From an uncultured delta proteobacterium (GTDB taxonomy: Bacteria > Desulfobacterota > Zymogenia > Zymogenales > Zymogenaceae), in assembly GCA_963809875.1 (NCBI GenBank), contig CAWELC010000005.1, positions 152,836 to 216,835 of the forward strand: a stretch of 64,000 nt of DNA. Reading direction: 5' to 3'. Below, piece by piece: positions 11,046-41,312 of the stretch. Within the stretch, counting starts at the first letter, position 1, and every line of letters begins with the position of its first letter. Below the pieces are notes generated by a model. That model was not told where the DNA came from and made no database searches. It worked only from the letters and a program-made list of their open reading frames with translations. The translations under genes were made by a program, and so were the position numbers.

Positions 11046-11048
11046 GGC

Positions 11049-11836: not shown

Positions 11837-11872
11837 TTTCTGTCTCCTGTCCCGATTTCATCGGTGGGTCAA

Positions 11873-24171: not shown

Positions 24172-25746
24172 CTAAACGCTCTTCAGGGAATTGCGGTATC
24201 TTTCGACCGCGTCCATGGGGGCACCATCAAATTTCAGTGCTCCCTGATCTATCCATAGCGCTCGCGTGCAGACCTGCTGTACGAAATTCATGTCGTGAGT
24301 TACCACGATTACCGCTTCGGCAAAGTTCACTAATTCCTGTATCCTCGTTACCGCGGCCTCATAAAAGGTTATATCGCCTACGCCCAGCGCTTCGTCTATT
24401 ATCAGGAAATCAGGTTGGATCATCGAAGCGATACTGAACCCCAGCCTTGATTTCATACCACTTGAGAAGTTCTTTATCGGCTCATGTATGAATTTCTTTA
24501 GACCCGAAAATTCAACGATTCCGGGATACATTTCCGTTAGCACCTTCCTGGGAATTCCCAGAATCATACCATTAAGAAAGATATTGTCGTTTGCGGTCAA
24601 TTGAGGATTGAACCCCGTTCCATAACCGAGCAGCGCGTTGACTTCACCCTTCATCCATATGGATCCGCCGTCAGGTTTGAATATCCCGTTGATCACTTTG
24701 CAGAGGGTCGTTTTCCCTGAGCCGTTGCGCCCTATTATCCCGATGATTTCGCCCCTTCGCACCTCGAACGTTACATTCTTCAAAGCCCAGAAGATCTTCT
24801 TTCTCCTATCGAAGAAGGTCTTGTATTTTTCCAGCCCATGATACTTCTTTCTCGGTCTGGATAGATGGAACGCTAATGACACATTCTTGGCCGAGAGAAT
24901 CGTTTCTCCTGTTGAGGTCTTCTTTGTCTTGCTGAAAAGAAGCTTCTTCTTTGGAGTGATCTTCTGGAATTTCTCCCTGTATTCTTTCACTATCTGCGCC
25001 GGGGATCCGGCCGAAAAAACCCTCCCGTCTTCAATCCACAGGGTGCGGGTACAAAACCGTTCGACAAAACCCATGTTGTGCGTAACAACGATGACCGTCT
25101 TTGACCTCCCGATGATCTCTTTCATTCTCTTGCCGGCTCTTTCGCTGAATTCAAGATCTCCGGCACCTAATACCTCGTCGATAACAAGGATGTCCGGTTC
25201 GATGGATGATGCAATGCTAAAGCTCAATCGTGACTTCATTCCGGTTGAATAGTACTTCAGCGGTTGATCGATGAAACCGCCGATACCGGAGAACCGTATT
25301 ATGCCCGAAGCGAGCGCGCGGGTCTCTTGCTTCGAAAAACCGAGCATCATCCCGTTCAAAAAGATATTTTCTCTCCCGGTAAGCTCCGGATTAAAACCGG
25401 CACCCAGAGAGAGAAGTGCCGATACGGAACCCTTGACGACAATATCGCCCTCATCCGGCCTCAGCAGTCCCGATAAGACCCTGCACAGTGTTGTCTTACC
25501 AGCCCCATTTCGACCGATGATTCCCAGAATCTCTCCCTCGGTGCAGCAGAAACCGAGGTCACGGAGGGCCCAGAATTCACTTTTCCTGTTTCTTTTGAGC
25601 AGCACGTTATACGTGAAAGACTGAAGATCTTCCCGTCTGTTTCCGATAAGATACTTCACTCCTATATTTGACGCTTCTATGGAATAGGGGCGGTGGAGCG
25701 CCCGTTCCTCCGGACATTGAATGTTATCTTGCTTCGATACAATCAT
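24172..25746 (-). CDS. ABC transporter ATP-binding protein with two tandem nucleotide-binding domains (polysaccharide/O-antigen export type, Wzt/TagH/KpsT-like)
   Basis: 524 aa. Two Walker A motifs (GRNGAGKTT and GRNGSGKTT), two ABC signatures (YSTGMKSRL and FSSGMKSRL) and two Walker B motifs (ILVIDEV and FLIIDEA). Confidence 0.75.
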   Translation of the reverse strand: MIVSKQDNIQCPEERALHRPYSIEASNIGVKYLIGNRREDLQSFTYNVLLKRNRKSEFWALRDLGFCCTEGEILGIIGRNGAGKTTLCRVLSGLLRPDEGDIVVKGSVSALLSLGAGFNPELTGRENIFLNGMMLGFSKQETRALASGIIRFSGIGGFIDQPLKYYSTGMKSRLSFSIASSIEPDILVIDEVLGAGDLEFSERAGKRMKEIIGRSKTVIVVTHNMGFVERFCTRTLWIEDGRVFSAGSPAQIVKEYREKFQKITPKKKLLFSKTKKTSTGETILSAKNVSLAFHLSRPRKKYHGLEKYKTFFDRRKKIFWALKNVTFEVRRGEIIGIIGRNGSGKTTLCKVINGIFKPDGGSIWMKGEVNALLGYGTGFNPQLTANDNIFLNGMILGIPRKVLTEMYPGIVEFSGLKKFIHEPIKNFSSGMKSRLGFSIASMIQPDFLIIDEALGVGDITFYEAAVTRIQELVNFAEAVIVVTHDMNFVQQVCTRALWIDQGALKFDGAPMDAVERYRNSLKSV

Positions 25747-25751
25747 GGTTT

Positions 25752-26537
25752 TTACAGCAGTTTGATAATTTTATGCTCGTTTCTACTGTAGTAGAATAGC
25801 ACAAGAACCGATATCAATAGGGAAAGAGAGCCTATTGATAATAGTGCGACGAAATCCGGTGCGTGATTATGCAGGAATATATCGCGGTAACTTCCCAGAA
25901 AGTGTGTCACGGGATTGAGTTCTATCAACCACCGGAGTCTTTTCGGAAAGGAGTCCTCAAGCCATATCACGGGAGAAGCGAAGAACCACAGTCTCATGAT
26001 ATGCCTGACTATGTTGTCAAAATCCCTTACCTTGACGCCGAGAAACGCCAGGGGAAATGATATCGCCGTCATGAAAAAGAGCTGCATAGCCATGACAAAC
26101 GGAAGCCAGAAAAGGTTCGGTCCGGGGAGTATCTTGAAGAATATCAGGAAGAGAGAGATGATCACGAGTCCGAAACCGAAATTGATCAATTGGGATAACG
26201 TGGCGCCGATGGGAAACAGTATCTTCGGCAGATAGATCTGCGTTATGAGCCCGGCTTCACTGTGTATGGAGCGCTCGGAGGTGCTCACGGTTGAATCAAA
26301 CCAGCGCCACACGACCATTCCGACTACCAGATAGCTCCCGTAGTCGCTGCCGCCCCTCTTGAACACTACCGAAACCAGAAAGTAGTAGATCGCAATGCCG
26401 AGCAGAGGGTCCAGGAGCCACCAGAAATATCCCAGGAAGGTGTTCCTGTGCTGCGCTTTGAGATTTGAGACGACCAGATACAGGAGGAGGTCTTTCCTCT
26501 TATAGAGGTTCCTACAGTACGTGGCGATGTCACCCAT
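25752..26537 (-). CDS. ABC-2 type transporter permease (Wzm/KpsM-like)
   Basis: 261 aa with 6 predicted TM helices. ABC-2 N-terminal pattern (LLYLVVSNLKAQHRNTFLGYFW). It lies directly upstream of the ATPase gene. Confidence 0.75.
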   Translation of the reverse strand: MGDIATYCRNLYKRKDLLLYLVVSNLKAQHRNTFLGYFWWLLDPLLGIAIYYFLVSVVFKRGGSDYGSYLVVGMVVWRWFDSTVSTSERSIHSEAGLITQIYLPKILFPIGATLSQLINFGFGLVIISLFLIFFKILPGPNLFWLPFVMAMQLFFMTAISFPLAFLGVKVRDFDNIVRHIMRLWFFASPVIWLEDSFPKRLRWLIELNPVTHFLGSYRDIFLHNHAPDFVALLSIGSLSLLISVLVLFYYSRNEHKIIKLL

Positions 26538-27307: not shown

Positions 27308-27405
27308 TATACATCCTTAAGACCACAGACCAACTCCTCGGTCAAGTCAGCGGCACGGCCATTCATGGTCCTTGGCCCGCGCCATCGTTACGAAAATGAG
27401 GTTTT

Positions 27406-29643
27406 CTATTCCTTTCCTCTCATATTGTAGAGAACTACACCGGCCCCGGTCGAGGAAAACGAATCCAATTTTATTTCATTTCTTTCTAGCTCAGCGAGGA
27501 TGGTATCGATGTGAAACTCCTTACTGCTCTTTCCCTTGAAAACGTGCGAATAGACCAGCCATACCCTTTCACGCCCCCGTGTCTTCTTATATATATCTTT
27601 GGCATAGTCCTGAGGGTTCTTTTTCGCATATATGCCTTTCACATATTCCATGTCCTCTAAAGAGAATCTCTTAAGGTAATAACTGTAGGCCCGTCCCGAA
27701 TTATGAAAGCAGTAGACCAGATCGCCCTCCCTCCTATTCTCCGAGATATACTTCAGGACCGGCTTGATTTCCTCGGGATCGAGCAGGACGGGCCTAAAGA
27801 AGGCGACGGAGCCGTCGGGCACGGGTGCGAACAATAATAGGATGAGAAACAGCCCGAAGATCATCGTCGACGTCCTCTTCTGTAATATTTCGACTATCGT
27901 CCAGAGCCCGTCTACTAAGACGAGGATTGCGATTGGGAGTATGAATAGTATGAGCCTCTGATAAAAGGGATACAAATGGAGCGCGGACAGCAATAGAGTT
28001 ACGATAATAGGCGAGAGCAAAAGGAGCGCCTTCCTCTTGTCGGCAACGAGGAGGGATGCTATACCGCTCAGGGAAACAGCCATCCAGAGCACGGGATAGG
28101 CGAGATGGAGGGAGAATTCAGAAGCAAAGACGTCATAAAATGAATTGAGGTACCATTTCGCATTTTCGAGAGAGACAGGTGCGGGCGCGAAATATTCCGC
28201 CCAGTATTTCTTCAAGAAGTCGTTTCCTGTGCCATATTTCAGACTTATGAAGTAGCTTAGTGCGAAGCTCATAAGACATACGAAAAGGATAATCGCCAGA
28301 GACCTAAACTGCTTACCATTCTTCTCGATGAGTGAAGACAGCATTAAGGTGGCGCCTACACCGGCCAGAACGAAGACGACGGGATGTGAAAACCAGATAA
28401 TCGTTGCCCCACAAACCGACAAAATGGCAACTGTCTTTGCCGTATAGGCTTTGTTTGAGTAATGGAAGAATATTAGATACATGAGGATAACTGCAAAGAC
28501 GTCCCCGGTATACTGCTTCACTACCGACGAGTAGTAGATCAATGATGGGGTTATTGAGAAGAGCAAGAGGCTTATCGGAACGGCCGGGGGCTTGAGTACC
28601 TGTTTGGATACAGCATAAAAGAGAGGGACCGAGGCAATGCTACAGATCAGTGGGAACAGACGCAAAGAATAGTCGCTGTCACCGAAGATACAGGTCATGG
28701 CTTTGAGGGATACGAGAAATCCGATGGGGGCAACTTGGCTGTAATTCAAAGGGCCGAAGAGGTCCAACAGATTGTACCTGAGTATATTTCCAGCAAGGGC
28801 CAGTTCGTCAAGCCATAGGGACCGATCATACTGGTACTGGTAGAGCCGAAATAGGATGCCAAGGGTTACTATGAACCAGATGAATGACTTAGACGCGTAC
28901 AGTCTCTTTGGAAAATCAACGAAGCTTTGGGAAAAACGCGGAATGGTTTTTCCGTCCGTCGATCTCTGACTTCCTCGTGAAGTCCTTAACTCTGAAAGCG
29001 TCATGCAGAGGAGCACGGAGAAAATGAACGAAAGCCCGATGAGATAGAATCGACCTATTCTGTTGCCTGATTCAATACTACCAATGAGGTTGCCGGACAG
29101 TTCAAAATGTGGATCGGTCCCCGTTGAAATGAGATACATTGCCTCATCTCGAAGATCCGGACCATTAATCTCGCTGGCCGATGTAATATTCCCGGTCAGT
29201 TCTCCGGCGCTGATAAAAGTGTATTCACTCCTGAGCCGGCTCTTCACCGTGATCTTCTTTATCGCGATGAGACCCTCGTGATGCCCCGGATCTATTCTGA
29301 TAGATTTAAGTTTCTTTGAAGGTAAATCAAAGACCAGTTCGGAAAATTCCCCGGGCTCATTGTACCGGCATTTTATGGAGTCTTTCTCGTTATAGCCCTT
29401 TCCGATGCTGTAATAAACCTGATAGGTGTCCGATACGGGTCCCTTTACGGTGATAGTGAGCGTTATAGGGGAATGGAAGTCTTTAAAGAGGAATAGTAGA
29501 GAAAAAAGTATGAAAAGAAGGAGTGGCGCTAAATAAACATAACCGTTCTTGAAGTATCGAATAATACCCTTTCTTATGGCCGATCGCACCTCTATATCGA
29601 AAAAATCGCCTTTATCTACCATATCTGCCGGGAGCATCTTCAA
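27406..29643 (-). CDS. Large polytopic membrane protein, GT-C-like (GT39/ArnT/PMT-like) glycosyltransferase candidate
   Basis: 745 aa. A central region of about 11 TM helices has a DE-containing first loop (WLDELA), as in ArnT/PMT-type transferases. It pairs with the adjacent DPM1-like GT2. The N- and C-terminal soluble extensions are not assigned. Confidence 0.5.
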   Translation of the reverse strand: MKMLPADMVDKGDFFDIEVRSAIRKGIIRYFKNGYVYLAPLLLFILFSLLFLFKDFHSPITLTITVKGPVSDTYQVYYSIGKGYNEKDSIKCRYNEPGEFSELVFDLPSKKLKSIRIDPGHHEGLIAIKKITVKSRLRSEYTFISAGELTGNITSASEINGPDLRDEAMYLISTGTDPHFELSGNLIGSIESGNRIGRFYLIGLSFIFSVLLCMTLSELRTSRGSQRSTDGKTIPRFSQSFVDFPKRLYASKSFIWFIVTLGILFRLYQYQYDRSLWLDELALAGNILRYNLLDLFGPLNYSQVAPIGFLVSLKAMTCIFGDSDYSLRLFPLICSIASVPLFYAVSKQVLKPPAVPISLLLFSITPSLIYYSSVVKQYTGDVFAVILMYLIFFHYSNKAYTAKTVAILSVCGATIIWFSHPVVFVLAGVGATLMLSSLIEKNGKQFRSLAIILFVCLMSFALSYFISLKYGTGNDFLKKYWAEYFAPAPVSLENAKWYLNSFYDVFASEFSLHLAYPVLWMAVSLSGIASLLVADKRKALLLLSPIIVTLLLSALHLYPFYQRLILFILPIAILVLVDGLWTIVEILQKRTSTMIFGLFLILLLFAPVPDGSVAFFRPVLLDPEEIKPVLKYISENRREGDLVYCFHNSGRAYSYYLKRFSLEDMEYVKGIYAKKNPQDYAKDIYKKTRGRERVWLVYSHVFKGKSSKEFHIDTILAELERNEIKLDSFSSTGAGVVLYNMRGKE

Positions 29644-29806: not shown

Positions 29807-30508
29807 TTACGTACCGACTCCTCGTTTTTGAGCATAGCCCCAATTGTTCTTTATCTCACAATTTGTGTACCCGGGGTGTGCTGCAACAAGTAGTTCAAAA
29901 ACTTTCAGTACTTGGGGAGTTTCGCGATAGTCGGCCGGCATCTTCGTTACATGCGGTTTGTCTTTAAGAGCTTTGCTTGTGGAATATGACCAGTTGATAT
30001 CATCGAAAATGAGCCAGCCTCCGTCCTTCAGAAATCTATCCACCAGGAAAAAAGCGAAGCCGGTTACGTCCCACGTATGCCCCCCGTCAAGATAAGCGAG
30101 ATCGAACTCTTTGTCCATGCCTTCCTCAAGCCAACGCATAAGTCGCCACGTAAAAGAGCAAGGTTCTCTGATCAGCTCAACCATGTGTGCCAGATTGCAT
30201 TGGTCAAGCAGTTCCTCAGCTTTCGGCGACCGGTCATGAGAGCTTTCAAGATCTATTGAAACAACACGATTGCCACCAGCTTCCTGCATCGCTCCTGCCA
30301 TATAGCACGTGGATACACCATGGGCAAAGCCCAGCTCAAGAATTTTCCTTGGACGATGCGTCAAGATAAAATCCGTCATTCGCTGTGCCTGCTCTATACG
30401 CATGAAAGGAGTATCGCGAACGACGGCTTTAATGTCATTGATCTTCATGTCGTCCCCACAGCCAACTTTGGGTCTTCTCTTCAGGGAAGCCACAAGCACG
30501 TATTTCAA
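29807..30508 (-). CDS. Class I SAM-dependent methyltransferase
   Basis: Rossmann-like motif ILELGFAHGVST and an acidic residue after beta-2 (VSIDLE). The true start is possibly MKINDIK at 30448. Confidence 0.6.
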   Translation of the reverse strand: MKYVLVASLKRRPKVGCGDDMKINDIKAVVRDTPFMRIEQAQRMTDFILTHRPRKILELGFAHGVSTCYMAGAMQEAGGNRVVSIDLESSHDRSPKAEELLDQCNLAHMVELIREPCSFTWRLMRWLEEGMDKEFDLAYLDGGHTWDVTGFAFFLVDRFLKDGGWLIFDDINWSYSTSKALKDKPHVTKMPADYRETPQVLKVFELLVAAHPGYTNCEIKNNWGYAQKRGVGT

Positions 30509-30544: not shown

Positions 30545-33500
30545 CTAAGGTGTTTTCCGCAACGCTTTAACGAAAGGTTGAAGGCGATCCCTGTGCCGGG
30601 AGTATCCGAAGTTTCGCTTAACGAAATCCCGGGCGATTTTGACTCTTTCCCGATAGAAAGCATGGTCACGGTGGAGCTGCTTAACAATATCCCGGACTTG
30701 TGAGGGTCGGGCGTAGAGCGCCGCCTCTTTAAACAGAGGACGAAAATGTTCAGGCAATATAACCGGAACGCCGGCTGCCATCGCTTCCAGCGGGGCGCGG
30801 GCGAAGGCTTCGACAGAATCCTGATGATGGAAATATACGAATACGTCGATTTCGGACAGAAACTCCCTTGGATGCATTGAATCAAACGGATATACGTCCC
30901 AATTGGGCGGGACAAACCCCACTACTTTTTGTACCGCTTTCGCTCCTCCCAGGATTTTGACCTGAAACCTGTCATCATCCGGGTAGGCGTCAAGGAGATC
31001 TTTCGGATTACCGGGCCACTTGACGTATTGATCCCGGGAGTGCCTGCCGATGACCGGGCGATCGTGTCTGCATTTGGCAGAAGGGGATGACCATTCGTCC
31101 ACATTGATAATGTTTACCCAGTCCGTATCCGCAAGGTTTATGATTTCTTTAACATCTCGTTCCTTAAGCACCGCACTGCGAGCCTGCGGACCGACGGGGT
31201 GCCAGACCCCTTTCTGTCCAAAGTAGCGCACCAGATTCTCGCTGCACGTTTTAAAATCATACACGCGTTCCCCCGTATCGCCATAATCACGAAAGGGTGA
31301 TCCATTAATTATCACACGTACTTCCAGGGGCAAAACCGCTGGAATATAGTCCTGATAATCCTGCAATGTCGGAGGGCCTCTAACAATAAGCAAATCGCAG
31401 GTTACTTCCTCTCCGTAGACAATCATTTGTACCGAGCGGCCGTCGATTTTGCATCGAACTTTCTCGGTAATGGGACGAGAATATGAGGTACTGTACCGTG
31501 CAATTTGCACCAAGCCCGTGTTGAGTCCGAGAGCTCTTTGAGCCTTGATTTCCTCAGCATTAGAGCTCGTGGTTCCACCGGGAAGCCGAAAATCGGAGGC
31601 GATGATCACGTCAAAATGGCGTTTTTTGGGGTGTTTGGTTTTCTTGCCGGGCCGCATTGGTTCCGGGATGGGAAAGAGCCTGGATTTTTGCGGGAATCCG
31701 TAGAAGAGACTGTCTGCGTTATCATGATAGTGTCTGAAGCTTTCCCGGTATTCCTTGCGTGCGCCCATGTAGTAACCGGGAAAGCCAAACGCAGCGTTTC
31801 CGGTCAAAGAATCTTCGGACTGCCTCGAAAAAGAAAGCGGTCCTGTAGGTAAATGGACGATAGAATCCTGGCCAAACACCTTTAGTAGCCGCTGTAAGAA
31901 CTCGCCATCGCCGCCGAATCGAACACTATCCCAGTAACCGATAGCATCCATCACGGCATTACGCCGAAACATCAGTGAGGACATATTGGACTGGATATAA
32001 AAACCGGGGTTGCCCCGGCGATAGAATTTCAGATTGTCCCTGGCACGGGCCAACTCTGACGTATTGGCTACTACTTCCGGCGTTCTGATCAGATGGAGAG
32101 CCTGTTGCTCAATTTTTTCCGGATGGGACCAATCGTCGGCGCCGTGACAGGTTACGAGAACTCCCGTCGCCAGTTTAAGCGCGATATTCTGCGCCACGTA
32201 AGGACCCTGGTTGATCCTCGATCTAATCAAGTGAACCCTGGCATCTTTCTTAACGTATTTTTCAACTACGTCCACGGTTGCGTCGGTGCTGCAGTCATCA
32301 ACCACCAATACTTCCAGATTGGACCATGTTTGCGCAAGGATAGAATCGAGGGCGGTGCGTATCGTCTTCTCGGCATTATACGCGGGCACTATCACGGTTA
32401 CGGCGGGCGAGCCTCCTGTCGTGTGCGGCTCCTTCCCGGGTTCGTGGCCCGGACGCAGGCAGTCAAAAGGCGGCAGGTCCGAGGCAGCGTCGTGAGAGAT
32501 TTCCGGAATCCCGCATAGATTGAGCGCTTTATTAATACAGTCTATTTGTCCTGAAATCGAAGTCTCCAGGTTCGCGGCGGCAAGGTACAGATCCGCGCTG
32601 GGGCCGGAAGACAGGGCGTCATCGACCGTTCTTTTACCCGCTTCCCGATCCCCCAAGAGATCATAACACTCGCCCTCAAGCAGGGATATCCTCTGAGAAC
32701 GATCCTGAATTTCTTGATCCCGGGCGGCTATCGCAAGCAGTTCCAGGCAGCGCCTGGCATCTTCTTGAGTGTATTTATCGGCATGCCATAAAGCCAGCTC
32801 CCAGGCGGCAAGCCGTTTGAGAGAAGGGTTTTCGTTTTGGCTGGATAAATCCCGCAAGTCCGAAGAGGCTCGCTCCGAAAAGCCCCCGCTTAACATGCGA
32901 CGTCTGAGATATGCTATTAAATCCTGGTCTTTCTTACTTTCCTTTTCTTCCTTAATGAATAGATCTGATGGGCCGCTCGATTGTACCTGCAGGGGCGATT
33001 CGGTTCTCGCTCCTTGATCTCGGCCTGGGCCGAGGGACGACGGGGACTCGTGGCCCGGTGCTGTCGTAGCCGGAGATGAACCAGTGGTTCCTTTCCACCT
33101 GTCTTCATTGACTACTTTCGACCAATCCTCTTTTGCCAGGGTTATCGCCTTCAGGTCGTCACCATGGTGTTTGTGAAGCGCGTCCCGTAGTTCCGGATCG
33201 CAGGGATACCAGACGGCGGGCTTGCCGAAGTACTCCTGAAGATGTTTTGAGCACCGCTCAATGTCATAGACGACGCCTTCAGAGCCTGAATCGTTATCAG
33301 GTGTTTGACTGAAAACAACCGCCACTTCGGTCGCTTCCACATCAGGAATGTGTCGCTGCCGTTCCTGAAGGACACGGGGGTCTCTGACAATTAATGTGTC
33401 ACAGCGGATTGCCTCTCCATAAACGACCATTTGAACCTGATCGCCGTCTATTATTTCGCGGAGGCGCTTATCGTAGTTGATTCTCGGGTTAGTTTCATAC

Positions 33501-35311
33501 CGACATAACTGAATAAGACCGATGCTCAGGCCTTTTCCCTTTCGGGCATTGATTTCCTCAACGATAGGGACGGCATTGTCGGCAATGCGGAAATCCGATA
33601 CGAAGACTATGTTGAAGTGTCGTTTTGAAGAAGGACCGGTATCTCTGCTCGGACGCATGATTTCGGGCACCGGATAGAGCCGGCTCTTTAGCGGAAACTC
33701 GTGGTATAGGTTGGGCGCAACACCATGATGGTACAGGTAGCTTTCACGATATTCCTTTCTCGCGCCCATGTGATAGCCGGGATAACCGAATTTCCTGTTA
33801 CCGGTGAGGGAATCCTGAGAAGCCCTTCCAAATGATAGCGGGCCGGTCCTTATTTCTTCAACTACGCTGTTGCCGAAAACCGTTCTAATTCGTCTATAAT
33901 ACTCCGTATCTGCGCCGAACCTCACGCTATCCCAATAGCCCAATGACTTTACTACCGGTTCCCGACGAAACATAAGGGATGACATGTTCAGGTATATGTG
34001 AAGACCATTGCTGCGCCGCAAAAGCAGCTTCAGTTCATCAGTAGCCCTCACCCAGGTCGAAAGGTTGGCCAGAAGGCGCGTGTTACTAAGTAAATGTCGC
34101 ACATGTATTTCGATCTTCTCGGGATGGAACCAGTCGTCCGAATCATGGCACGTCACGAAATCGCCCGTCGCCTCTCTCAGCGCGATATTGCGCGCGATAT
34201 AGGTCCCCTGGTTGATTTTAGCTCTCATCAACGTAACCCGGTGGTCCTTGGCCTCGTATTCCCTGACAATAGCTGCGGTGTCGTCACTACTGCAATCGTC
34301 AACAACCAGTATCTCCAGGTTCGTCCAGGTCTGCGAAAGGGTGGAATCAAGGGCGGTGCGTATCGTCTTTTCGGCATTGTATACAGGCACTATCACCGTG
34401 ACCTTGGGAGAATCTCCCGCTCCATCCGGTTCTCTTATCGGTTTGCTATGTGGACGCAGGCAGTCAAACGGCGGTAGGTCGGCGTCAGAATCGAAAGAGA
34501 CTTCCGAAAGCCCGGCTAACTCAAACGCCTTATTAATGCAGCCGATTCGGCCCGGGATCGACGTCTCCATGTTCGCCGCGGCAAAGTAGAGATCCGCGCT
34601 GGGGCCCGAAGACCGGGCGTTATCGATTGTCCTTCTTCCTGCCTCCACATCCCCCAATATATCGTGACATCCGGCCTCAACCAGGGCCAGAGAAAGCAGG
34701 CGATGCTGGCTGTTATCACCTTGAGCAGCTATCGCCAGCATGTCCAAACACTGCCGGGCGTCCTCTTTGCTGTATCTGTTGGCGTGCCATAGGGCGAGCT
34801 CCCACGCCGATAGCTTTTGCATGAGAGGCCGTGACCCGTCCATTGCCATAGTGTTCAGGTCCGAATAGGCGCGCTCACGGAAACCAAGGTCAAGGAGCTT
34901 GATCCTTATTTTTTCTATTTCGCGCTCGCTTTTTTGCTGTCGGCTTCTTACACTTCTTTTCCCGGTTGGGGGGGCGCCTAAAGGACCGGCGGGCGGTCTT
35001 TGCCCGTTGCCGCGGCTTGCCCATCCGATCCAATGGATAAGGGGATTGGTGTCAGATTCGGCGATTTCAGGATCGTTGGAGAAATACCCGTCGGTTGAAA
35101 ACGTGGCGCTGGGATCCCTTCCTTCCTTCCACCCGTTTGTCACATAGTGCCAAATCGGGTCTATTCCCGCATTCGATACGTCGGGATATTGGCGCAAATA
35201 GTATTTCTCATCAAACAGGCCGGATTTCCGGATGATATATGCTTCTTTTTGCCAACGTATGTGCTCACCTGCCCTTTCGAAGAGTTCCTTAAGATCCCCG
35301 GCTCGCAGCAT
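30545..35311 (-). CDS. Giant (1588 aa) multidomain glycosyltransferase with an internally duplicated module (2x [TPR-like helical region + GT2 domain + extended C-terminal region]); terminal GT1/GT4-like C-terminal domain
   Basis: Two GT2 cores (VTVIVPVYNAEKTIRTALDS..DDCS.D / VTVIVPAYNAEKTIRTALDS..DDCSTD). The two halves are about 60-70% identical. The antisense ORFs at 32093..32518 and 34094..34477 are mutually similar. The C-terminus is GT1-like (EAMAAGVPVI). Confidence 0.7.
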   Translation of the reverse strand: MLRAGDLKELFERAGEHIRWQKEAYIIRKSGLFDEKYYLRQYPDVSNAGIDPIWHYVTNGWKEGRDPSATFSTDGYFSNDPEIAESDTNPLIHWIGWASRGNGQRPPAGPLGAPPTGKRSVRSRQQKSEREIEKIRIKLLDLGFRERAYSDLNTMAMDGSRPLMQKLSAWELALWHANRYSKEDARQCLDMLAIAAQGDNSQHRLLSLALVEAGCHDILGDVEAGRRTIDNARSSGPSADLYFAAANMETSIPGRIGCINKAFELAGLSEVSFDSDADLPPFDCLRPHSKPIREPDGAGDSPKVTVIVPVYNAEKTIRTALDSTLSQTWTNLEILVVDDCSSDDTAAIVREYEAKDHRVTLMRAKINQGTYIARNIALREATGDFVTCHDSDDWFHPEKIEIHVRHLLSNTRLLANLSTWVRATDELKLLLRRSNGLHIYLNMSSLMFRREPVVKSLGYWDSVRFGADTEYYRRIRTVFGNSVVEEIRTGPLSFGRASQDSLTGNRKFGYPGYHMGARKEYRESYLYHHGVAPNLYHEFPLKSRLYPVPEIMRPSRDTGPSSKRHFNIVFVSDFRIADNAVPIVEEINARKGKGLSIGLIQLCRYETNPRINYDKRLREIIDGDQVQMVVYGEAIRCDTLIVRDPRVLQERQRHIPDVEATEVAVVFSQTPDNDSGSEGVVYDIERCSKHLQEYFGKPAVWYPCDPELRDALHKHHGDDLKAITLAKEDWSKVVNEDRWKGTTGSSPATTAPGHESPSSLGPGRDQGARTESPLQVQSSGPSDLFIKEEKESKKDQDLIAYLRRRMLSGGFSERASSDLRDLSSQNENPSLKRLAAWELALWHADKYTQEDARRCLELLAIAARDQEIQDRSQRISLLEGECYDLLGDREAGKRTVDDALSSGPSADLYLAAANLETSISGQIDCINKALNLCGIPEISHDAASDLPPFDCLRPGHEPGKEPHTTGGSPAVTVIVPAYNAEKTIRTALDSILAQTWSNLEVLVVDDCSTDATVDVVEKYVKKDARVHLIRSRINQGPYVAQNIALKLATGVLVTCHGADDWSHPEKIEQQALHLIRTPEVVANTSELARARDNLKFYRRGNPGFYIQSNMSSLMFRRNAVMDAIGYWDSVRFGGDGEFLQRLLKVFGQDSIVHLPTGPLSFSRQSEDSLTGNAAFGFPGYYMGARKEYRESFRHYHDNADSLFYGFPQKSRLFPIPEPMRPGKKTKHPKKRHFDVIIASDFRLPGGTTSSNAEEIKAQRALGLNTGLVQIARYSTSYSRPITEKVRCKIDGRSVQMIVYGEEVTCDLLIVRGPPTLQDYQDYIPAVLPLEVRVIINGSPFRDYGDTGERVYDFKTCSENLVRYFGQKGVWHPVGPQARSAVLKERDVKEIINLADTDWVNIINVDEWSSPSAKCRHDRPVIGRHSRDQYVKWPGNPKDLLDAYPDDDRFQVKILGGAKAVQKVVGFVPPNWDVYPFDSMHPREFLSEIDVFVYFHHQDSVEAFARAPLEAMAAGVPVILPEHFRPLFKEAALYARPSQVRDIVKQLHRDHAFYRERVKIARDFVKRNFGYSRHRDRLQPFVKALRKTP

Positions 35312-35558
35312 TTCGAGCAGGCGAGACTTTAACTCGGCCTATCTCTCCCTTCCCGTAGAGATTGGCTAACCCTTTGACGTGATGGCCCGGCGGTGAAGTA
35401 TCTTGATAGCTTCCCCCGAAGTTCGACGGATTTCTTTTACCGGGTGATTTCCTCACTTTCCCTGTCTTCTTCCCCGGGTCGCTCCCGACTCCCCGGTTCT
35501 TCTTCGGCCTGGATATCCCCAGAAGCGGCCTGATCTTTGTTTCCCAAAGACGGTGCAT

Positions 35559-37578
35559 CTATCGTTCTCCGGACGGACCGTTGGCCTTAAAAAGACTCAT
35601 AAAATAGCCATACGTTTGCCTACCCTCGCGCTTGTGACAGAACGCCTTGGCCGTTTCTATTCCATTCGTTCGTATCCTGTTTCGAAGCGTACTATTCCTG
35701 ATGAGTCTTATGATCGCTTCCGCGGCCACATCAGGATTTTTCGGCGGGACCATGATGGAGTTTTCCATGTGTCTGGCATATTCGTTGACTCCGCCTACGT
35801 CTGTAACGACGCATGCCGCTCCACACGCCATCGCCTCCAGAGCCGGTCTTCCGAACCCCTGGAAGTCCGATCCGTCAAAAAAAACGTCGGCCTGAGAGTA
35901 CAACATCGCCAGTCTATCCTGGTTACTCACCACTCCCGCGTTTACGAACTCGAAAGGGATCTCGCTTTTCGGAAGATTCTCATCACCGAAGAAAATGATC
36001 TGAGCCTGCGGGATTGCCGTTTTTACCCGCCTGAATGTCTCTATCACGTTATTGTATCCCCTTTTGGGCGTTCGGGGACGCGCCATCGCCATGACGGCGG
36101 GGCAGTCCTTCTTTTCGCTTTCCCTCGGGTAAAAAAAACCGAGATCCATGCCCAGGCGGATCTTGTTAGTATTATAGTCGTGGCACGCTAACATCGCTTT
36201 GAGCCAGTCGGATTTTACGATCTTATTGGGAATAAGCGCGTATGAGTTGATAACCGCCTTTCTCTTCTCGATTTCCTCCTCGGGATAGAACCAGCTCTCA
36301 TAATCCTGGATAAAATATACCGGTATCATCGATGGGTTTTTCTTGAGAAGCTCCGGTACCCAATAGGCGGTATTCCAAAGGGTCGCCACCACGATATCGG
36401 TGGGAGGAAATTCCTCGAGTAATTCCTTCTCACTAGTATAGACAATCGGCTCAAACAGCATTTTCCAGTCATCCAGCTCCGGATACTTAAAGAGCGTGGC
36501 AATTCGCGCTTCGACCCCGTGAAGGATCAGCTCGTTTACCAGCTGAACGACGGAAAGCACCCCCCCGGCAAGGATCATACGGTGCAGTAAATAGGTGACC
36601 CTGAGACGATCGGGTCTTGTTACTCTACTCAAGAACTCTTTCCTGATCGCGGGTTGACGATAACTGGATAATGACCGTATTCCTCTATAGAGCTCCCTGG
36701 CGGATGTGCCCCATTCTCTCTTTCTCAGCTCCCTCCTGACCTTTCTCCCGACGATCCTCACAGCGTAATCTAAATTGAACCGGGACGGGTACCCTGCCTC
36801 GGTCCGTATATAACGTAAAGGATCATTCTTCAGGAAGAGCTTATACTGTTTTCGGTACTCTTTTTTCCACCTCCCATTGAATATCGCTATATTTCTTTTA
36901 AATCGCTCATCCCTTGAAAAGAATGACGCTCTGCCCTTGTGGTAAACGAACGTATCATCGCATACGACCGTTCGGTATCCATCGGTCGTCAGGCGCATAC
37001 AGAGATCAGACTCCTCGCAATACCCCCTGTCGTAGATTTCATCGAAATAGCCGATCTTCTCTAATATAGCGCGCCGCAGGAGCATGCAGAACCCCACTCC
37101 GGTGACGATATCGGGGTATTGAGCCCTGGATCGAGAGGAGGCAAGCTCATTCATACCGAAGATATTCGCGCCGGGTGCGATTGCGAGATCAATATTGGCG
37201 GCGAAGTTCGTCAGGGGGTTCACCGACGCGATCCTTGGGTCCGATGACGCGCATCGAATCATCTTGCTTAGCCATCCGGGGGTGACAATCGTGTCGCTGT
37301 TCAGAACAACGATATATTCCGATCCCCCGATCTTCATCCCCTTATTGCTGCTGCGCAGGAAGCCGATCCTCCGTTCTATTGGAATAGAGTGATACATGTC
37401 GATGTTTTTCCGAAAAGGCCCGGAGGTACTCCCGAACGTGCCCATCGCTATTATCATCTATGATTATCAAGCTATAGGGCACATCTCTCGTGTAGTTAAT
37501 GATCGAGTCGAGGCAATCCTTAGTGTAGGCCATTGCATTGAAGACAGGCAGCACAATATTGCAGATAGGCTTGATCAT
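35559..37578 (-). CDS. Bifunctional GT2 (N-terminal) + GT1/GT4-like (C-terminal) glycosyltransferase, apparent frameshift near 37400
   Basis: The GT2 N-terminus ICNIVLPVFN..IIIDDNSDG is in ORF 37342..37578. The remainder (VVLNSDTIV..; C-terminal EAMACGAACVVTDVGG) is in ORF 35559..37457 in another frame. Confidence 0.6.
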
Positions 37579-37777
37579 GAGTAACCTTTGTGAGAACAGA
37601 ACTAATGCCCTTGCCCTAAATTACGACATTTATACGCAATAGCACTATAGGATGAGAGATATTACGGAATGACCGCTGCCACATGAGTAGCCAATGATAG
37701 GATAAAGCACCCTTCTAAGCTCAATATCTATGCTTCTAAACCGTTCCAGGGACTTTCCCTTACTATGCCGCACTTCA

Positions 37778-39442
37778 TCATTTCATCGATTTGCGTTCCC
37801 TTCTTTTTTGCACATCGATAATCTTTGCTTCAACCTTATAGTTCTCTCCCGGTCCCGGTGCTGCAATTACTTCGTCGATACCATCAGCGTCCAAATCACC
37901 GGAGGCGACGTTGAGCCCGTATTTCAGTTCAAATGGGAATGCTTTGAAGATCGATTCCCACCTGCTGTTGAATATACGCAAATGATCGCCCGAGTACTTC
38001 GATGGCCCCGGGCCGGTAATGATTTCGTCCAAACCATCGCCGTCTATATCTCCCGATGCGAGATTAATCCCATAAATTGCCCCGGGAATGTAGGCCAGGA
38101 CCCAGGGATTTTGGATGAACGAGTTAGTACTATTGTCAAAATCCAGATACGCAACGTACGCCCTGTAGACCCGTATATGGGCAAGGCCGAGGAGTATCTC
38201 ATCCCGGCCGTCGCCGTCGATATCACCGCTCCCCACCTGGAGGCCGTGTCTGATCTTCTTGAAATAATCGTCTTGGTCAACGAAATCGATAATCTCAAAC
38301 TCACGCACTATCCGGCCGTTTCCGTTGAACACCCTGATCACCGGTTTATAGCCCTGACCCGGCCCCGGCGCGGTTATGATCTCGTCCAATCCATCGCCGT
38401 CGATATCTCCCGCGGCGACATTGGCTCCGAACTTCTTGCACGGAAAAGCCGTAAAATGTGCGATCTCATGTCCCTTACCATCGAGGACTTTGATCAGCGT
38501 ATCGTTTGTGTAATGCGGGCCCTTGGCTGCAATAATCTCATCAATCCCGTCACCGTTGATGTCTCCGGCGGCAATGAGTACGCCATAGCGGACCTTCTTT
38601 TCGAAAGCCCGAAAGGTATTAAGGACGACGCCTTTCTCATCACGTACCAAAATCTCTGTATCATTGTCTGGATGGGGGCCTTTGCCGATCAATAGTTCGT
38701 CTTTTCCATCTCCGTTAACATCGCCGGCGGCAACCGTCGCGCCTCTTCCATAGCTATTGTACAGCTCGCCTCCGGGAAGCCCGATCTGGAAATTACTGAT
38801 CAGTCCGGGGATTAGAAAAACGAAGAACGCCGTAGCCACGGTGGCATGCGTCAGACCTAACGTGAATATATTCCTGTTTCTCAGAAACAAGATGCAGAAG
38901 AGCAAGCCGCCTAGAAGCGTTAACAGCATGAGCTTCCAATCGGGGGCGTGCATAAGCGAAAAAAGAACAGCAGCAATCGGGACCGCAATGATGTTCGATC
39001 GAGAAATCTCCTTGATTCTCAAAAGGAGAAAGCTATTGAGAAAGAACTGCTGGAAGATACCCCCACCTATATACGTTGAAAAATTGGCGAGAATCGACAT
39101 GAATGTGCGAGGCATGAATATCGGATCGAAGAAAAGAAATATGGAGATAATAATTGCGATTGAAAGGAGAGTGGCGATGCCGCATTCTTTTAATGATCTT
39201 GGGATATTGTCAAACCGGATCCCTATTTCCGGGAGGGTATCGGCGTGAACAAGAAAACTGAGCGAGAAAACGAGAATACAAACGCTGCCCGAGAAAATCG
39301 AATAATATAATCCAAATACACAAAGTCGAAAAGGCCACACTATTGAAAAATAGGCGCCGAGCACGATCAGGAGTTCCACAAGGGAGTACAACCTCGGTTT
39401 ACTGGAATAGAATTGCCTTGCGTAAGACAAAGCTTCGTGCAC
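37778..39442 (-). CDS. Fusion protein: N-terminal CPBP (CAAX-protease/Abi-like) intramembrane domain + C-terminal FG-GAP/integrin-alpha-type beta-propeller repeats
   Basis: The N-terminal 230 aa are polytopic with FSLMH and ..H...N motifs of CPBP proteases. The C-terminus has at least 6 repeats of the calcium-binding GD(I/V/L)(N/D)GDG.DE(I/L) pattern. Confidence 0.55.
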   Translation of the reverse strand: MHEALSYARQFYSSKPRLYSLVELLIVLGAYFSIVWPFRLCVFGLYYSIFSGSVCILVFSLSFLVHADTLPEIGIRFDNIPRSLKECGIATLLSIAIIISIFLFFDPIFMPRTFMSILANFSTYIGGGIFQQFFLNSFLLLRIKEISRSNIIAVPIAAVLFSLMHAPDWKLMLLTLLGGLLFCILFLRNRNIFTLGLTHATVATAFFVFLIPGLISNFQIGLPGGELYNSYGRGATVAAGDVNGDGKDELLIGKGPHPDNDTEILVRDEKGVVLNTFRAFEKKVRYGVLIAAGDINGDGIDEIIAAKGPHYTNDTLIKVLDGKGHEIAHFTAFPCKKFGANVAAGDIDGDGLDEIITAPGPGQGYKPVIRVFNGNGRIVREFEIIDFVDQDDYFKKIRHGLQVGSGDIDGDGRDEILLGLAHIRVYRAYVAYLDFDNSTNSFIQNPWVLAYIPGAIYGINLASGDIDGDGLDEIITGPGPSKYSGDHLRIFNSRWESIFKAFPFELKYGLNVASGDLDADGIDEVIAAPGPGENYKVEAKIIDVQKRRERKSMK

Positions 39443-40320
39443 TAGTGAGAAATCCTTTTTACAGTATTACGCAGTTGAAGTGTCAATACTTCTATAGATG
39501 TCATGAAGAAACGCAATAGAATCCCGCAGGCGACAAGAATATGAGTGAATGGATTCCTCCGAAGATACTTTCTATAGTACAACCACATGCCCCGGTGTCT
39601 TTCATAATTGATTTTTATTGTCGGTACGGTCCTGCTTATGCCGATTTCATGTGAGACTGATACTTCGGGATGATATACTACTCGATATCCGGCTCTTGCC
39701 AATCGATTGCAGAAATCCACGTCTTCATGGAAAAGAAAGTAATCTTCGCAAAAACCCCCAATTGCGTCAAAGACATCCTTTCTTACTATCATGGCGCATC
39801 CCGAGACCCAATCTACCTGCTGTGATTTATCGTCGCTCATTATAGGATTAAGATATTCTCTGGAAAACCTGTTGCTCGGAACCAGCCTGGTGAGAATAGA
39901 GCCTCGATTGAATAGAGCAGTTCTTAAGGTTGGAAAATTTCGAGCAGAAAGCTGTCTTGTTCCATCGCTCGGATTCAGGATCTTAGGACCCAGAACGCCG
40001 ACATGATCCGTCGAGAGATAGCCAGGAATATTTCTAAGGTCATGCGTTAGTATATACGAATCCGGATTCAGCAAGAAGATTATGTCTTTGCTCGCATGTT
40101 TTATTCCGAAATTAGCACCGGAGCCATAACCCATATTCTTTTCTAATTCTATGAGTCTGACGTTGTTAAACCTGCTCCTTATTAATTGTTTTGTCATGTC
40201 CCGGGAATTATTGTCCACGACGATAATCTCATACGGGATTCCTTTGATCGACGAAATATGTTCAAGGCACGCCGTGATGGTTCTCTCGCTGTTGTGAGTT
40301 ATTATTACAAAGCTTATCAT
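39442..40320 (-). CDS. GT2 family glycosyltransferase
   Basis: 292 aa. SFVIITHN, IVVDNNSRD, a DxD-like motif and a C-terminal hydrophobic tail. Confidence 0.75.
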   Translation of the reverse strand: MISFVIITHNSERTITACLEHISSIKGIPYEIIVVDNNSRDMTKQLIRSRFNNVRLIELEKNMGYGSGANFGIKHASKDIIFLLNPDSYILTHDLRNIPGYLSTDHVGVLGPKILNPSDGTRQLSARNFPTLRTALFNRGSILTRLVPSNRFSREYLNPIMSDDKSQQVDWVSGCAMIVRKDVFDAIGGFCEDYFLFHEDVDFCNRLARAGYRVVYHPEVSVSHEIGISRTVPTIKINYERHRGMWLYYRKYLRRNPFTHILVACGILLRFFMTSIEVLTLQLRNTVKRISH

Positions 40321-41312
40321 CGCGCACCACCATTTGGAAAAAGTTTTGCCCTTATTTTTCCAAGAAACCAGCCGTCTGCTATTAAAGATCTAACATATCG
40401 ATTTGTGACCTTCCTTTTTTCCTGGATAACACGTCTCTTCTTTACGGTACCAATAAAGCGGATTATAAACGAAAACTTCGCACTGAAAAAGGAAATCAAT
40501 TCCCCTTGCATCGTGAAATATAGGAATGCTGATATGTTGTAAATAACATGCATCGGCAAGTGAGAAACCAAGAGGCTCAGCGGCATGTTCTTGAAAAAAA
40601 CATATTCCAGATTCCTTTGTCCGTAGTAACTGAAAACCCGGTTAATGTCCTTAATTGTTCCACTCGTCTTGTGGTATGCGATTGCTTTCGGACAATAAAT
40701 GCATTTATAACCCGCCAGCTGAGCACGAAAGCTTAGATCCACGTCCTCACACATAATGAAGAAATCTTCATCAAACAGCCCGATTTCTTGCAGCATCTCC
40801 CGACGATATACCACGGCCGCGGCGCACGCGCCGAAGACGTATTCGAAGTCGTTGTAGGAGTCTATCCTTTGCCCAAGTCCGCGTTTTGCGTTGACCCCCC
40901 CTCTCGTATAGAGATCTCCGGCTGTATCAATGGCATCCCTTCGATAGAAATTGACTATTTTGGAAGCGCAGAAACCGGCGTCCGGATAGAGCTTGAGACA
41001 TTCAAGAGACTCTTTCAGCCAGTCCTCATGTGCGACCGCGTCGTTGTTGAGGAGTGCTACAAAGTCTCCCGCACCCGATCTGATTCCAATATTGTTGGCA
41101 CCGGTAAAACCACGGTTTTCCTTCAAAGGTATTATTTCTGTGTCCCCGTACCTACTGGAAACATACTCTACAGACCCGTCATCAGACCCATTGTCTACAA
41201 GAACAATTCTTTTGTCCCGGTGGCTTTGACCGTATACTGAATCCAGGCAATCAGACAAGAAATGCTTTCCATTCCAATTTACGATTACCACGTCTACTTG
41301 ACTGTCTTTCAT
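40317..41312 (-). CDS. GT2 family glycosyltransferase (rhamnosyltransferase-like)
   Basis: 331 aa. VVIVNWNG and VLVDNGSDDGS motifs. It is the first gene of the minus-strand glycan cluster and overlaps the next gene by 4 nt. Confidence 0.75.
   Translation of the reverse strand: MKDSQVDVVIVNWNGKHFLSDCLDSVYGQSHRDKRIVLVDNGSDDGSVEYVSSRYGDTEIIPLKENRGFTGANNIGIRSGAGDFVALLNNDAVAHEDWLKESLECLKLYPDAGFCASKIVNFYRRDAIDTAGDLYTRGGVNAKRGLGQRIDSYNDFEYVFGACAAAVVYRREMLQEIGLFDEDFFIMCEDVDLSFRAQLAGYKCIYCPKAIAYHKTSGTIKDINRVFSYYGQRNLEYVFFKNMPLSLLVSHLPMHVIYNISAFLYFTMQGELISFFSAKFSFIIRFIGTVKKRRVIQEKRKVTNRYVRSLIADGWFLGKIRAKLFPNGGAR

Follow-up and report, generated by a model that had tools for sequence, protein, structure and literature searches.

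Gene Structure and Internal Repeat

The window analyzed in this work is a stretch of 64,000 nt from contig CAWELC010000005.1 of an uncultured delta proteobacterium, and its main subject is a minus-strand gene for a large glycosyltransferase (GT). The gene is a single open reading frame (ORF) with an ATG start, encoding 1588 aa and a stop codon, and the exact protein is already on record in NCBI/ENA, on a contig of 1.04 Mb. Two paralogous modules, separated by a linker, make up most of the chain. The layout was derived from phmmer mapping of sub-domains, Pfam, and two AlphaFold2 models, and comprises the following features:

30545..35311, minus strand: whole coding sequence of the two-module glycosyltransferase (ORF list and translation; database record)
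34964..35311, minus strand: N-terminal region, residues 1-116, with the motif FDEKYYLRQYPDV...GWKEGRDP (phmmer map; 56% identity to residues 529-632 of the relative P0003)
34418..34909, minus strand: helical (TPR-like) domain H1 of module 1, residues 135-298 (repeat alignment; AlphaFold2)
33632..34417, minus strand: GT2 domain (GT-A) of module 1, residues 299-560 (Pfam PF00535; column audit; PmHS2 alignment)
33077..33631, minus strand: orphan GT-B N-half of module 1, Bn1, residues 561-745 (domain map; AlphaFold2; column audit)
32909..33076, minus strand: inter-module linker, residues 746-801 (AlphaFold2; sequence)
32414..32908, minus strand: helical (TPR-like) domain H2 of module 2, residues 802-966 (AlphaFold2 model, pLDDT 91.7)
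31628..32413, minus strand: GT2 domain of module 2, residues 967-1228, with R1041Q and D1057G (column audit of 123 modules; codons)
31082..31627, minus strand: GT-B N-half of module 2, Bn2, residues 1229-1410, Gly-Gly loop G1245 G1246 kept (domain map; AlphaFold2; column audit)
30548..31081, minus strand: GT-B C-half of module 2, Bc, residues 1411-1588, with R1423, K1431, and EX7E (weak Pfam Glycos_transf_1 and Glyco_trans_1_4; invariant columns; Foldseek)
32093..32518, plus strand: antisense shadow ORF over the GT2 core of module 2, not a gene (start 2001 nt from its twin; 43% identity)
34094..34477, plus strand: antisense shadow ORF over the GT2 core of module 1, not a gene (twin of 32093..32518)

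The internal repeat of the 1588-aa protein is real and far above chance. In detail, the self-comparison of 30.5-35.3 kb showed direct DNA repeats (235 and 142 nt long, both with 77% identity) with a constant start-to-start spacing of 2001 nt, that is, 667 codons exactly in frame. The self-blastn of the coding sequence gave 70% over 705 nt (E 8e-90). At the protein level, residues 135-766 align with residues 802-1428 (52% identity, 634 columns, 9 gaps). An earlier note on this DNA, made from its letters, had described the ORF with a ~2-kb internal repeat and paralogous residues ~130-800 and ~830-1400. Both observations were confirmed by the DNA and protein self-alignments, with the module boundaries refined to 135-745 and 802-1410 (~610 residues each), and the peptides quoted in that note (LAAWELALWHA... 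and VTVIVP[VA]YNAEKTIRTALDS) are found in both modules. The identity of the two modules differs per domain, that is, 55.5% for the helical part, 59.8% for GT2, and 42.2% for the GT-B N-half.

The two antisense ORFs had been read as a further confirmation of the duplication. Their homology is evident (43% identity over 127 aa, E 3e-30), and their starts lie exactly 2001 nt apart, but the repeated GT2 core produces them as frame shadows, and they are not independent evidence of genes.

Domain Anatomy of the Two Modules

Each module starts with a bundle of short helices. In the head of module 1, eight helices, each 10-24 residues long, are located within residues 117-265 (pLDDT >90), and the head of module 2 has seven helices of 9-17 residues and a short first helix. 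The label "TPR-like" is mainly based on this predicted helix pattern, as no TPR match of Pfam was obtained in the two helical domains of the window and matches in homologues were sub-threshold (five out of nine). These regions had been taken as helical linkers or spacers. The TPR-like start of each module stands; however, it is a compact bundle of ~130 aa which also heads nearly all single-module homologues, and its short helices and its position indicate a module head and not a spacer. Extended coiled coils are absent from both models, in which the longest helix has 24-27 residues; a dedicated coiled-coil predictor was not run and the other proteins of the operon were not modeled. The true linker (residues 746-801, 56 aa) is rich in S/P/G and then in K/E. 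Residues 734-801 are predicted to be disordered (pLDDT <50, with block means of ~28-36 from residue 741), and no coiled coil appeared there, whereas the model of module 1 is confident over residues 117-733.

The GT2 domains are clear in both modules. Pfam PF00535 matches two stretches with E 4e-69 and 232 bits against a cut-off of 23.3, and thus the general description of a giant multi-GT protein with two paralogous modules and two GT2 cores was borne out. The GT2 of module 1 has a confident model and its sequence aligns to PmHS2. The model of module 2 (pLDDT 91.7, pTM 0.90) matches PmHS2, SpsA, K4CP, and TarS in Foldseek, with E values from 1e-23 to 1e-10.

The two modules differ in their GT-B part. 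In module 2, Bn2 and Bc are modeled as the two Rossmann halves of one GT-B (GT4-like) domain, and this part matches the GT4 enzyme BshA (3mbo) over ~412 columns (Foldseek, E 2e-9, TM 0.62). The Pfam match of Glycos_transf_1 is below the curated cut-off (24.6 bits vs 26.4) and covers residues 1469-1519; homologues carry precomputed matches to PF00534 and PF13692. R1423, K1431, E1501, and E1509 are invariant or nearly invariant columns of the family, and the EX7E motif (E1501...E1509, 30785-30811) is invariant in 79 aligned sequences. A C-terminus of GT1/GT4 type is therefore present, as had been proposed, but as the second half of module 2's own GT-B and not as a separate added domain.

Module 1, on the contrary, lacks the entire GT-B C-half, and the two modules are not equivalent. 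Bn1 is nevertheless predicted as folded (pLDDT >90), with the same order of strands and helices as Bn2. With a profile of the GT-B C-half, remnants of Bc were not detected in the linker or after any other module without a C-half.

Family Distribution and Subtypes

Homologues were searched across 5.8 billion proteins, and a profile search covered 1.84 billion representatives. The latter returned 8732 representatives at E <= 1e-30, a number which includes unrelated proteins with GT2 or GT4 domains; the best 150 all score >680 bits. The typical member of the family is a single module of ~890 aa with the order helical domain, GT2, Bn, and Bc (H-GT2-Bn-Bc), and is annotated only as "glycosyltransferase." Members are spread in Bacillaceae (many alkaliphilic), Bacteroidota, Proteobacteria, and many metagenomes, and giant multi-domain relatives occur in metagenomes; the scan of contigs showed relatives in Bacillaceae, Lacicoccus, and Nesterenkonia. 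Module 2 aligns full-length and in the same domain order with 78 single-module proteins, at 41-54% identity. No characterized member was found in the searchable literature on teichuronopeptide, polyglucuronic acid, and ABC-transporter-dependent GT2/GT4/TPR polymerases. The gene of the window is an uncommon variant of this widespread, uncharacterized TPR-GT2-GT4 family.

Domain layouts were mapped in 252 sampled family proteins. The plain order H-GT2-Bn-Bc is found in ~160 of them, and a looser criterion (one GT2 and one Bn) gives 184 full-type single-module proteins. A short subtype, H-GT2-Bn without Bc, accounts for 48. The layout of the window protein (N-terminal region, then H-GT2-Bn-H-GT2-Bn-Bc) is shared within this sample only with the Tenuifilaceae proteins P0002/P0121, a cluster of 11 member sequences located on 23 contigs. 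The Gly-Gly loop is kept in 172 of the 184 full-type proteins versus four of the 48 short ones, and the R-D-D-D residues of GT2 are kept in 167 of 184 and in all 48, respectively. Because 44 out of 48 short forms have lost the Gly-Gly loop, versus 12 out of 184 full forms, the short form appears on sequence grounds to be a genuine subtype and not a set of fragments.

The possibility that proteins without the C-half are fragments from contig ends was largely rejected by the same counts. The approximately four short proteins with Gly-Gly (e.g., P0267) are probably fragments.

In Lacicoccus alkaliphilus (contig L007, 9974-13830), both of two tandem family ORFs end within or just after the GT-B N-half, without the C-half. 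Their Gly-Gly loop is lost (S-T and P-Q), and their GT2 signatures are kept. Fusions to other domains also occur: an alginate-lyase domain (PF05426) is attached to 13 of the closest 120 homologues, and the TupA ATP-grasp domain PF14305 to one.

The N-terminal region (residues 1-116) has no match in Pfam and a low AlphaFold2 confidence. Its motif, in the form FDEKYYLRQYPDV...DP..HY...GWKEGRDP, is located just ahead of the helical domain in ~30 of the 252 relatives, sometimes twice, and is also seen at residues 885-965 of P0002 and 538-653 of P0003.

Conservation of the Catalytic Positions

Two audits were performed. In the first, the columns conserved at >=97% in the 78 single-module proteins were applied to 123 modules, and in the second, 16 signature positions were followed in tandem and fused relatives. 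The GT2 signature of module 1 is intact (D338 D339, R374, and D390-S-D392-D393). In Bn1 of the same module, D578 N579 replace the Gly-Gly pair, and further changes are common to the short modules.

Module 2 shows the reverse picture, as it retains every GT4 signature and two replacements affect its GT2. The conserved Arg is replaced in R1041Q (codon CAG, 32189-32191), and the first Asp of DxDD is replaced in D1057G (codon GGC, 32141-32143), so that the motif reads HGADD versus xD[SA]DD in the family and the solved homologues. Neither Q1041 nor G1057 is found in any of the 122 other aligned modules, and PmHS2, K4CP, and GalT1 all have DSDD at the position equivalent to D1057. The closest relative, P0003, retains both original residues. 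The positions D1005, D1006, D1059, D1060, and D1128/D1135/E1137 are kept in module 2. Consequently, the "identical GT2 cores" of the earlier note are indeed two GT2 cores, but only one of them is canonical.

Judged by these residues, the protein probably has one canonical GT2 site, in module 1, and one canonical GT4 site, in module 2. The GT2 of module 2 is probably impaired or repurposed, and Bn1 would be non-catalytic.

The fused multi-module relatives (n=14) were audited in the same way. The GT4 of the C-terminal module is intact in 11 of them, and in ten of these 11 the N-terminal GT4 is absent or degraded, either by deletion of the C-half or by mutation of the GG loop or of EX7E. P0005 is the sole one of the 11 with GT4 kept in both modules. 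In P0007, P0172, and P0178, the C-half is missing from both modules. P0004 shows a complementary pattern, with a degraded GT4 in module 1 and a dead GT2 in module 2. In most fused relatives, a single GT4 is accompanied by two or three GT2 signatures that are intact.

This last distribution suggests a selected GT2-GT2-GT4 stoichiometry, and is the first argument for a possible, though doubtful, reading with three live sites. Both GT2 domains and the GT4 would then be catalytic, module 2 using its GADD motif and Q1041 with a shifted donor or metal use, and the protein alone would make a repeat of three linkages (two beta and one alpha), each linkage having its own module as in WbdA. Characterized WbdA polymerases have one GT module per linkage type (PMC11231755), and the acidic positions listed above remain intact in module 2. 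Against it, the two replacements are unique among the aligned modules, the solved enzymes have Asp at the position of D1057, P0003 keeps both residues, and the fully decayed second-module GT2 of P0004 shows that such a decay is possible.

Origin of the Two Modules

The bootstrapped neighbor-joining tree of the modules (100 replicates) separates the two parts of the protein. The short modules of P0098, P0063, and P0065 are joined by module 1 (100/100), and the single module of P0003 by module 2 (100/100), while a sister position of modules 1 and 2 was recovered in 0/100. The identities are in accordance with the tree: ~58% of module 1 to P0063, P0065, and P0070, 66% of module 2 to P0003, and 52% between the modules. 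At residues identical or conserved between modules 1 and 2, the third-codon positions are 43-59% identical, and synonymous sites are near saturation.

The metagenome contig of P0003 (L010) is syntenic with the operon of the window, its GT2, GT2, and GT2-GT1 genes being 71%, 62%, and 78% identical. P0003 itself consists of a methyltransferase, the N-terminal motif, a separate GT4 segment, and one long module. A different GT4 segment is thus located in L010 where module 1 sits in the window protein.

On the basis of these groupings, identities, third-codon positions, and synteny, the protein is best seen as a short-type module fused to a long-type module within a single chain, and not as a recent local duplication. 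The "tandem duplication" of the earlier note, if taken as a recent in-place event of ~2 kb followed by the loss of the C-terminal half of the first copy, is very improbable. It had in its favor the period that is exactly in frame, the DNA similarity of up to 77% over the GT2 core, and the tandem paralogue pairs that are common in the family, with adjacent genes in six Bacillaceae genomes. However, each module is closer to other proteins than to its partner, the third-codon positions have diverged, and the syntenic contig has one long module.

A mis-join, in which an assembly error or a false frameshift in a metagenome-assembled genome united adjacent short-type and long-type genes, can be practically dismissed. 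The source is probably such a genome, the family often occurs as two adjacent genes, and the neighboring GT2-GT1 gene has an apparent frameshift of 1 nt near 37375. Nevertheless, the reading frame stays open over 1588 codons, an in-frame disordered linker of the kind typical of domain fusions forms the junction, the same short-plus-long fusion is found in the 11 Tenuifilaceae sequences, and other fused multi-module relatives exist. For the same reasons of frame and linker, a second module that is a frameshift-merged separate gene, which the earlier note had considered, did not hold. In annotation, it is to be handled as a single, genuine fused gene, neither a recent duplication nor a mis-join.

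At its start, the gene seems N-terminally truncated in relation to P0003. The homology to P0003 (its residues 529-632) begins nine codons upstream of the ATG, at 35338, immediately following a TAG at 35339-35341, and P0003 carries ~528 extra N-terminal residues including a Methyltransf_24 domain. A clear ribosome-binding site was not seen before the ATG (35312-35341).

The Glycan Operon

The gene belongs to a minus-strand operon with the order GT2, GT2, CAAX-protease-like/FG-GAP, GT2+GT1, the two-module gene, Methyltransf_24, PMT_2-type GT-C, 228-aa GT2, ABC-2 permease, and TagH/Wzt-like ATPase. Besides the gene itself, the operon includes:

35559..41312, minus strand: upstream genes, that is, GT2+GT1 at 35559-37457, CAAX-like/FG-GAP at 37778-39442, GT2 at 39442-40320, and GT2 at 40317-41312 (Pfam; L010 synteny 62-78%)
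29807..30508, minus strand: S-adenosylmethionine-dependent methyltransferase of 233 aa, 36-nt gap downstream of the two-module gene (Pfam Methyltransf_24, weaker RMNT_CmcI)
24172..26537, minus strand: export module, ABC-2 permease at 25752-26537 and 524-aa ATPase at 24172-25746 (Pfam, NCBIfam; motifs, self-alignment)

The 233-aa methyltransferase is a candidate glycan O-methylase or chain terminator. The Methyltransf_24 domain is fused within the relatives P0002 and P0003; a similarity of the window enzyme to the N-terminal part of P0003 was not detected by tblastn.

The ATPase contains two complete nucleotide-binding domains (NBDs), which share 47% identity over 242 aa; Walker A, Walker B, and a signature motif (YSTGM and FSSGM) occur in both. 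According to Pfam and the motif check, the carbohydrate-binding domain Wzt_C, with which Wzt reads a chain-end cap, is absent from the ATPase and its C-half is the second NBD. The exporter ATPase is therefore itself an internal duplication. The permease is 48.6% and the ATPase 47.3% identical to the transporter of the tup locus of Halalkalibacterium halodurans, where the ATPase (534 aa) also has tandem NBDs. In these loci, an ATPase of this type consistently accompanies the family.

Between the exporter and the methyltransferase (26621-29643, minus strand), a 228-aa GT2 similar to the polyprenyl-phosphate-sugar synthases AglJ, PpgS, and ArnC adjoins a 745-aa GT-C of PMT_2 type. A polyprenyl-phosphate-sugar synthase and a GT-C are the usual pair adding side-chain sugars after the export of a polymer. 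The operon layout points to an ABC-transporter-dependent glycan pathway with decoration after export. The host is tentatively considered a diderm of the Zymogenaceae lineage, as a transketolase subunit encoded in the window belongs to a 90%-identity cluster with a protein of a Candidatus Zymogenaceae (Deltaproteobacteria) metagenome-assembled genome. The polymerase part of the earlier analogy to ABC-dependent O-antigen systems is reasonable in view of the ABC-2 permease and the Wzt/TagH-like ATPase.

Upstream, the GT2+GT1 gene (632 aa; 35559-37578) carries the apparent frameshift mentioned above. Its L010 homologue (78%) matches in two frames, with residues 1-67 at 37578-37378 and residues 69-537 at 37373-35967. 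The ORF as listed, starting with the ATG at 37457, is therefore without the first ~60 positions of the GT2 profile. Either the gene is a pseudogene, or the assembly is in error here. The next gene (37778-39442, minus strand; 554 aa) combines an Rce1/CAAX-protease-like membrane domain with FG-GAP repeats and has no counterpart in L010.

Comparison with Known Polymerases

The tup-type loci of Bacillaceae show the closest organization. Their proteins have the same module order (helical domain, GT2, GT-B N-half, and GT-B C-half) and 45-54% identity to module 2 over ~780 aa, and two paralogous modules lie side by side, after a homologous permease and a tandem-NBD ATPase. For instance, in H. halodurans the adjacent genes are located at 9863-12424 and 12342-15074 of contig L001. 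In Bacillaceae, however, the modules are separate genes in which every GT2 and GT4 signature residue is kept (12 of 12 genes in the six genomes), and the tree indicates that this gene pair arose from an independent duplication. In the window, the modules are fused, the first without the GT-B C-half and the second with an altered GT2 site. Next in the Bacillaceae loci come ATP-grasp genes of the TupA-like and RimK-like types, both absent from the window; for TupA, tblastn gave no match in the window, and L001-L005 and L007 do have such a gene.

Among solved structures, both GT2 domains match best the GT2 domain of PmHS2, the heparosan synthase 2 of Pasteurella multocida (PDB 8vh7/8vh8/8viw), with ~22% identity. 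For module 2, the phmmer alignment (E 2e-22) extends over 253 residues and includes the FP...PVPE tail after the GT-A core, and the Foldseek match has E 1.5e-23. K4CP (2z86), the chondroitin polymerase of Escherichia coli K4, is among the further GT2 matches. In PmHS2 and K4CP, one polypeptide holds two different transferase sites, with UDP-GlcA and UDP-HexNAc as donors, and makes an alternating polymer. The GT2 domain of PmHS2 is presumably its glucuronosyltransferase and its second site is a GT45 domain, whereas the second site of K4CP is a second GT-A domain. In the window protein, the second domain is a GT-B (GT4-like) according to Foldseek, and the TPR-like head and the module repeat are absent from PmHS2 and K4CP.

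A likeness to WbdA/WbdD and WbbB (E. coli O9a and Klebsiella O3/O5/O12) is found at the level of organization, as these are cytoplasmic multi-GT polymerases encoded with a Wzm/Wzt-type exporter, and their catalytic modules are variably split between single and fused proteins (PMC11231755). A methyltransferase is also part of both systems, next door in the window and fused in P0002 and P0003. On the other hand, extended coiled coils are lacking in the window protein, a second NBD takes the place of Wzt_C in the ATPase, and the repeat includes one truncated and one non-canonical domain. Chains of WbdA, WbbB, and WbdD were absent from the matches in the PDB sequence and fold searches. The "ruler" part of the analogy drawn in the earlier note (WbdA/WbbB-like) is thus not supported by the coiled coil, by Wzt_C, or by direct similarity.

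The capsule polymerase of Actinobacillus pleuropneumoniae serotype 3 (8qoy) matches weakly in fold over the whole chain (rank 16, E 4e-11, 10% identity, poor rmsd). Polymerases of this type contain TPR domains, and their catalytic domains are of another, TagF-like type. The likeness is limited to the architectural logic of a large multi-domain polymerase in an ABC-transporter-dependent pathway.

The 2677-aa relative of Tenuifilaceae is encoded after Wzm and a Wzt that has Wzt_C, and its own chain includes a methyltransferase. It is the only GT directly beside Wzm/Wzt, and one small GT2 is located a few genes downstream. This locus bears on whether the window protein makes the chain at all. The protein could add an adaptor or side branches, while the 632-aa GT2+GT1 protein and the two small GT2s polymerize; the operon does have four other cytoplasmic GT domains. 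Such a role is improbable, since the Tenuifilaceae relative stands alone beside its exporter with the methyltransferase in the chain, the two family genes of Bacillaceae directly follow the transporter, and the GT2 domains are most similar to the dual-site polymerases PmHS2 and K4CP.

Proposed Function

The reading preferred here, with a probability of roughly one in two, is a cytoplasmic multi-domain glycan polymerase built from two anciently diverged modules, with one working GT2 and one working GT4 site. Module 1, of the short subtype, would contribute a canonical inverting GT2, followed by the N-terminal Rossmann half of a GT-B that has lost its Gly-Gly loop. Module 2, of the long subtype, would contribute a complete retaining GT4, and its GT2 would be without two conserved donor-site residues. 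The beta-forming GT2 site and the alpha-forming GT4 site would alternate and produce a disaccharide-type repeat, as a single-module relative would. The orphan half-GT-B and the altered GT2 may have been retained as non-catalytic parts with a structural or acceptor-binding role. The chain would then be O-methylated and exported by the permease and the tandem-NBD ATPase, and outside the membrane it would be decorated by the polyprenyl-phosphate-sugar synthase and GT-C pair.

Several points weigh against this proposal. D1059, D1060, and the rest of the GT2 signature of module 2 persist, a DxD motif without its first Asp is not a proof of inactivity, and this domain is not otherwise fast-evolving. 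The GT2 of module 1 is also altered at one invariant column (Q403H). R1041Q and D1057G may be sequence errors, given the apparent frameshift near 37375 in the same assembly. No activity, donor, or product on record for family members was found in the searchable literature. Moreover, the role of a polymerase, as opposed to an adaptor or branching enzyme, is deduced from the size of the protein, the family context, and the gene fusions, although the position of relatives next to exporters in Tenuifilaceae and Bacillaceae supports it. Finally, genes for nucleotide sugars and UDP-glucose dehydrogenase were not found in the window, and with TupA-like genes also absent any uronic acid in the product is suggested solely by the relatives.

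The polymer may contain uronic acid, for which the hints are weak. The loci of Bacillaceae contain TupA-like ATP-grasp genes, and a UDP-glucose/GDP-mannose dehydrogenase gene is located near the Tenuifilaceae gene. The alginate-lyase fusions among the closest homologues and the heparosan synthase PmHS2 as best solved match of the GT2 domains are further hints of this kind. The teichuronopeptide of B. halodurans is built from poly-gamma-L-glutamate together with polyglucuronic acid (PMC8153356). The poly-alpha/beta-1,4-glucuronic acid of teichuronopeptide loci would need one retaining and one inverting transferase. An alternating alpha/beta polymer with uronic acid is a lead and not a finding.

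Multi-module polymerases of ABC-transporter-dependent glycans are already known, and the interest of the present family lies in the recurrent loss of the redundant GT4, the orphan half-GT-B, and the link to teichuronopeptide-type polymers. The family is a candidate for the missing glycan polymerase of the teichuronopeptide-type wall polymers of alkaliphiles, and it offers a natural series of proteins in which half a GT-B survives without the nucleotide-binding half, possibly as a pseudoenzyme or scaffold domain. In a broader and rather speculative version, which we consider unlikely as a whole, fusion within the family would repeatedly trigger complementary decay (of the N-terminal GT4 and of some C-terminal GT2 domains), the leftovers would be pseudoenzyme scaffold or glycan-binding domains that set processivity or chain length where the polymerase lacks a coiled-coil ruler and the ATPase a Wzt carbohydrate-binding domain, and the family would be the missing polymerase of alpha/beta-alternating polyuronates of teichuronopeptide type.

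Other Features of the Window

The whole glycan operon lies in an island of low GC content (~24-50 kb), with 45-56% GC versus 57-63% in the rest of the window. This composition suggests that at least the glycan part was acquired horizontally. The island also spans a two-component system, CoA-transferase genes, and Fur/KatG. Divergent to the operon and immediately upstream of it (42207-43939, plus strand), there are genes for a PAS/HisKA_3 histidine kinase and a LuxR-type response regulator, a pair that may regulate the operon. The scan of the operon for promoters and terminators was no better than in shuffled sequences (23 vs 22.6 promoter-like and 25 vs 18.3 terminator-like signals).

Two further long ORFs of the minus strand combine unlike domains. 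The one at 9546-11045 has a short-chain dehydrogenase and the domains of a GntR/FCD regulator, and the other, at 11873-14527, has a GFO/IDH/MocA oxidoreductase and an M24 peptidase domain. These are either true fusions or merged adjacent genes.

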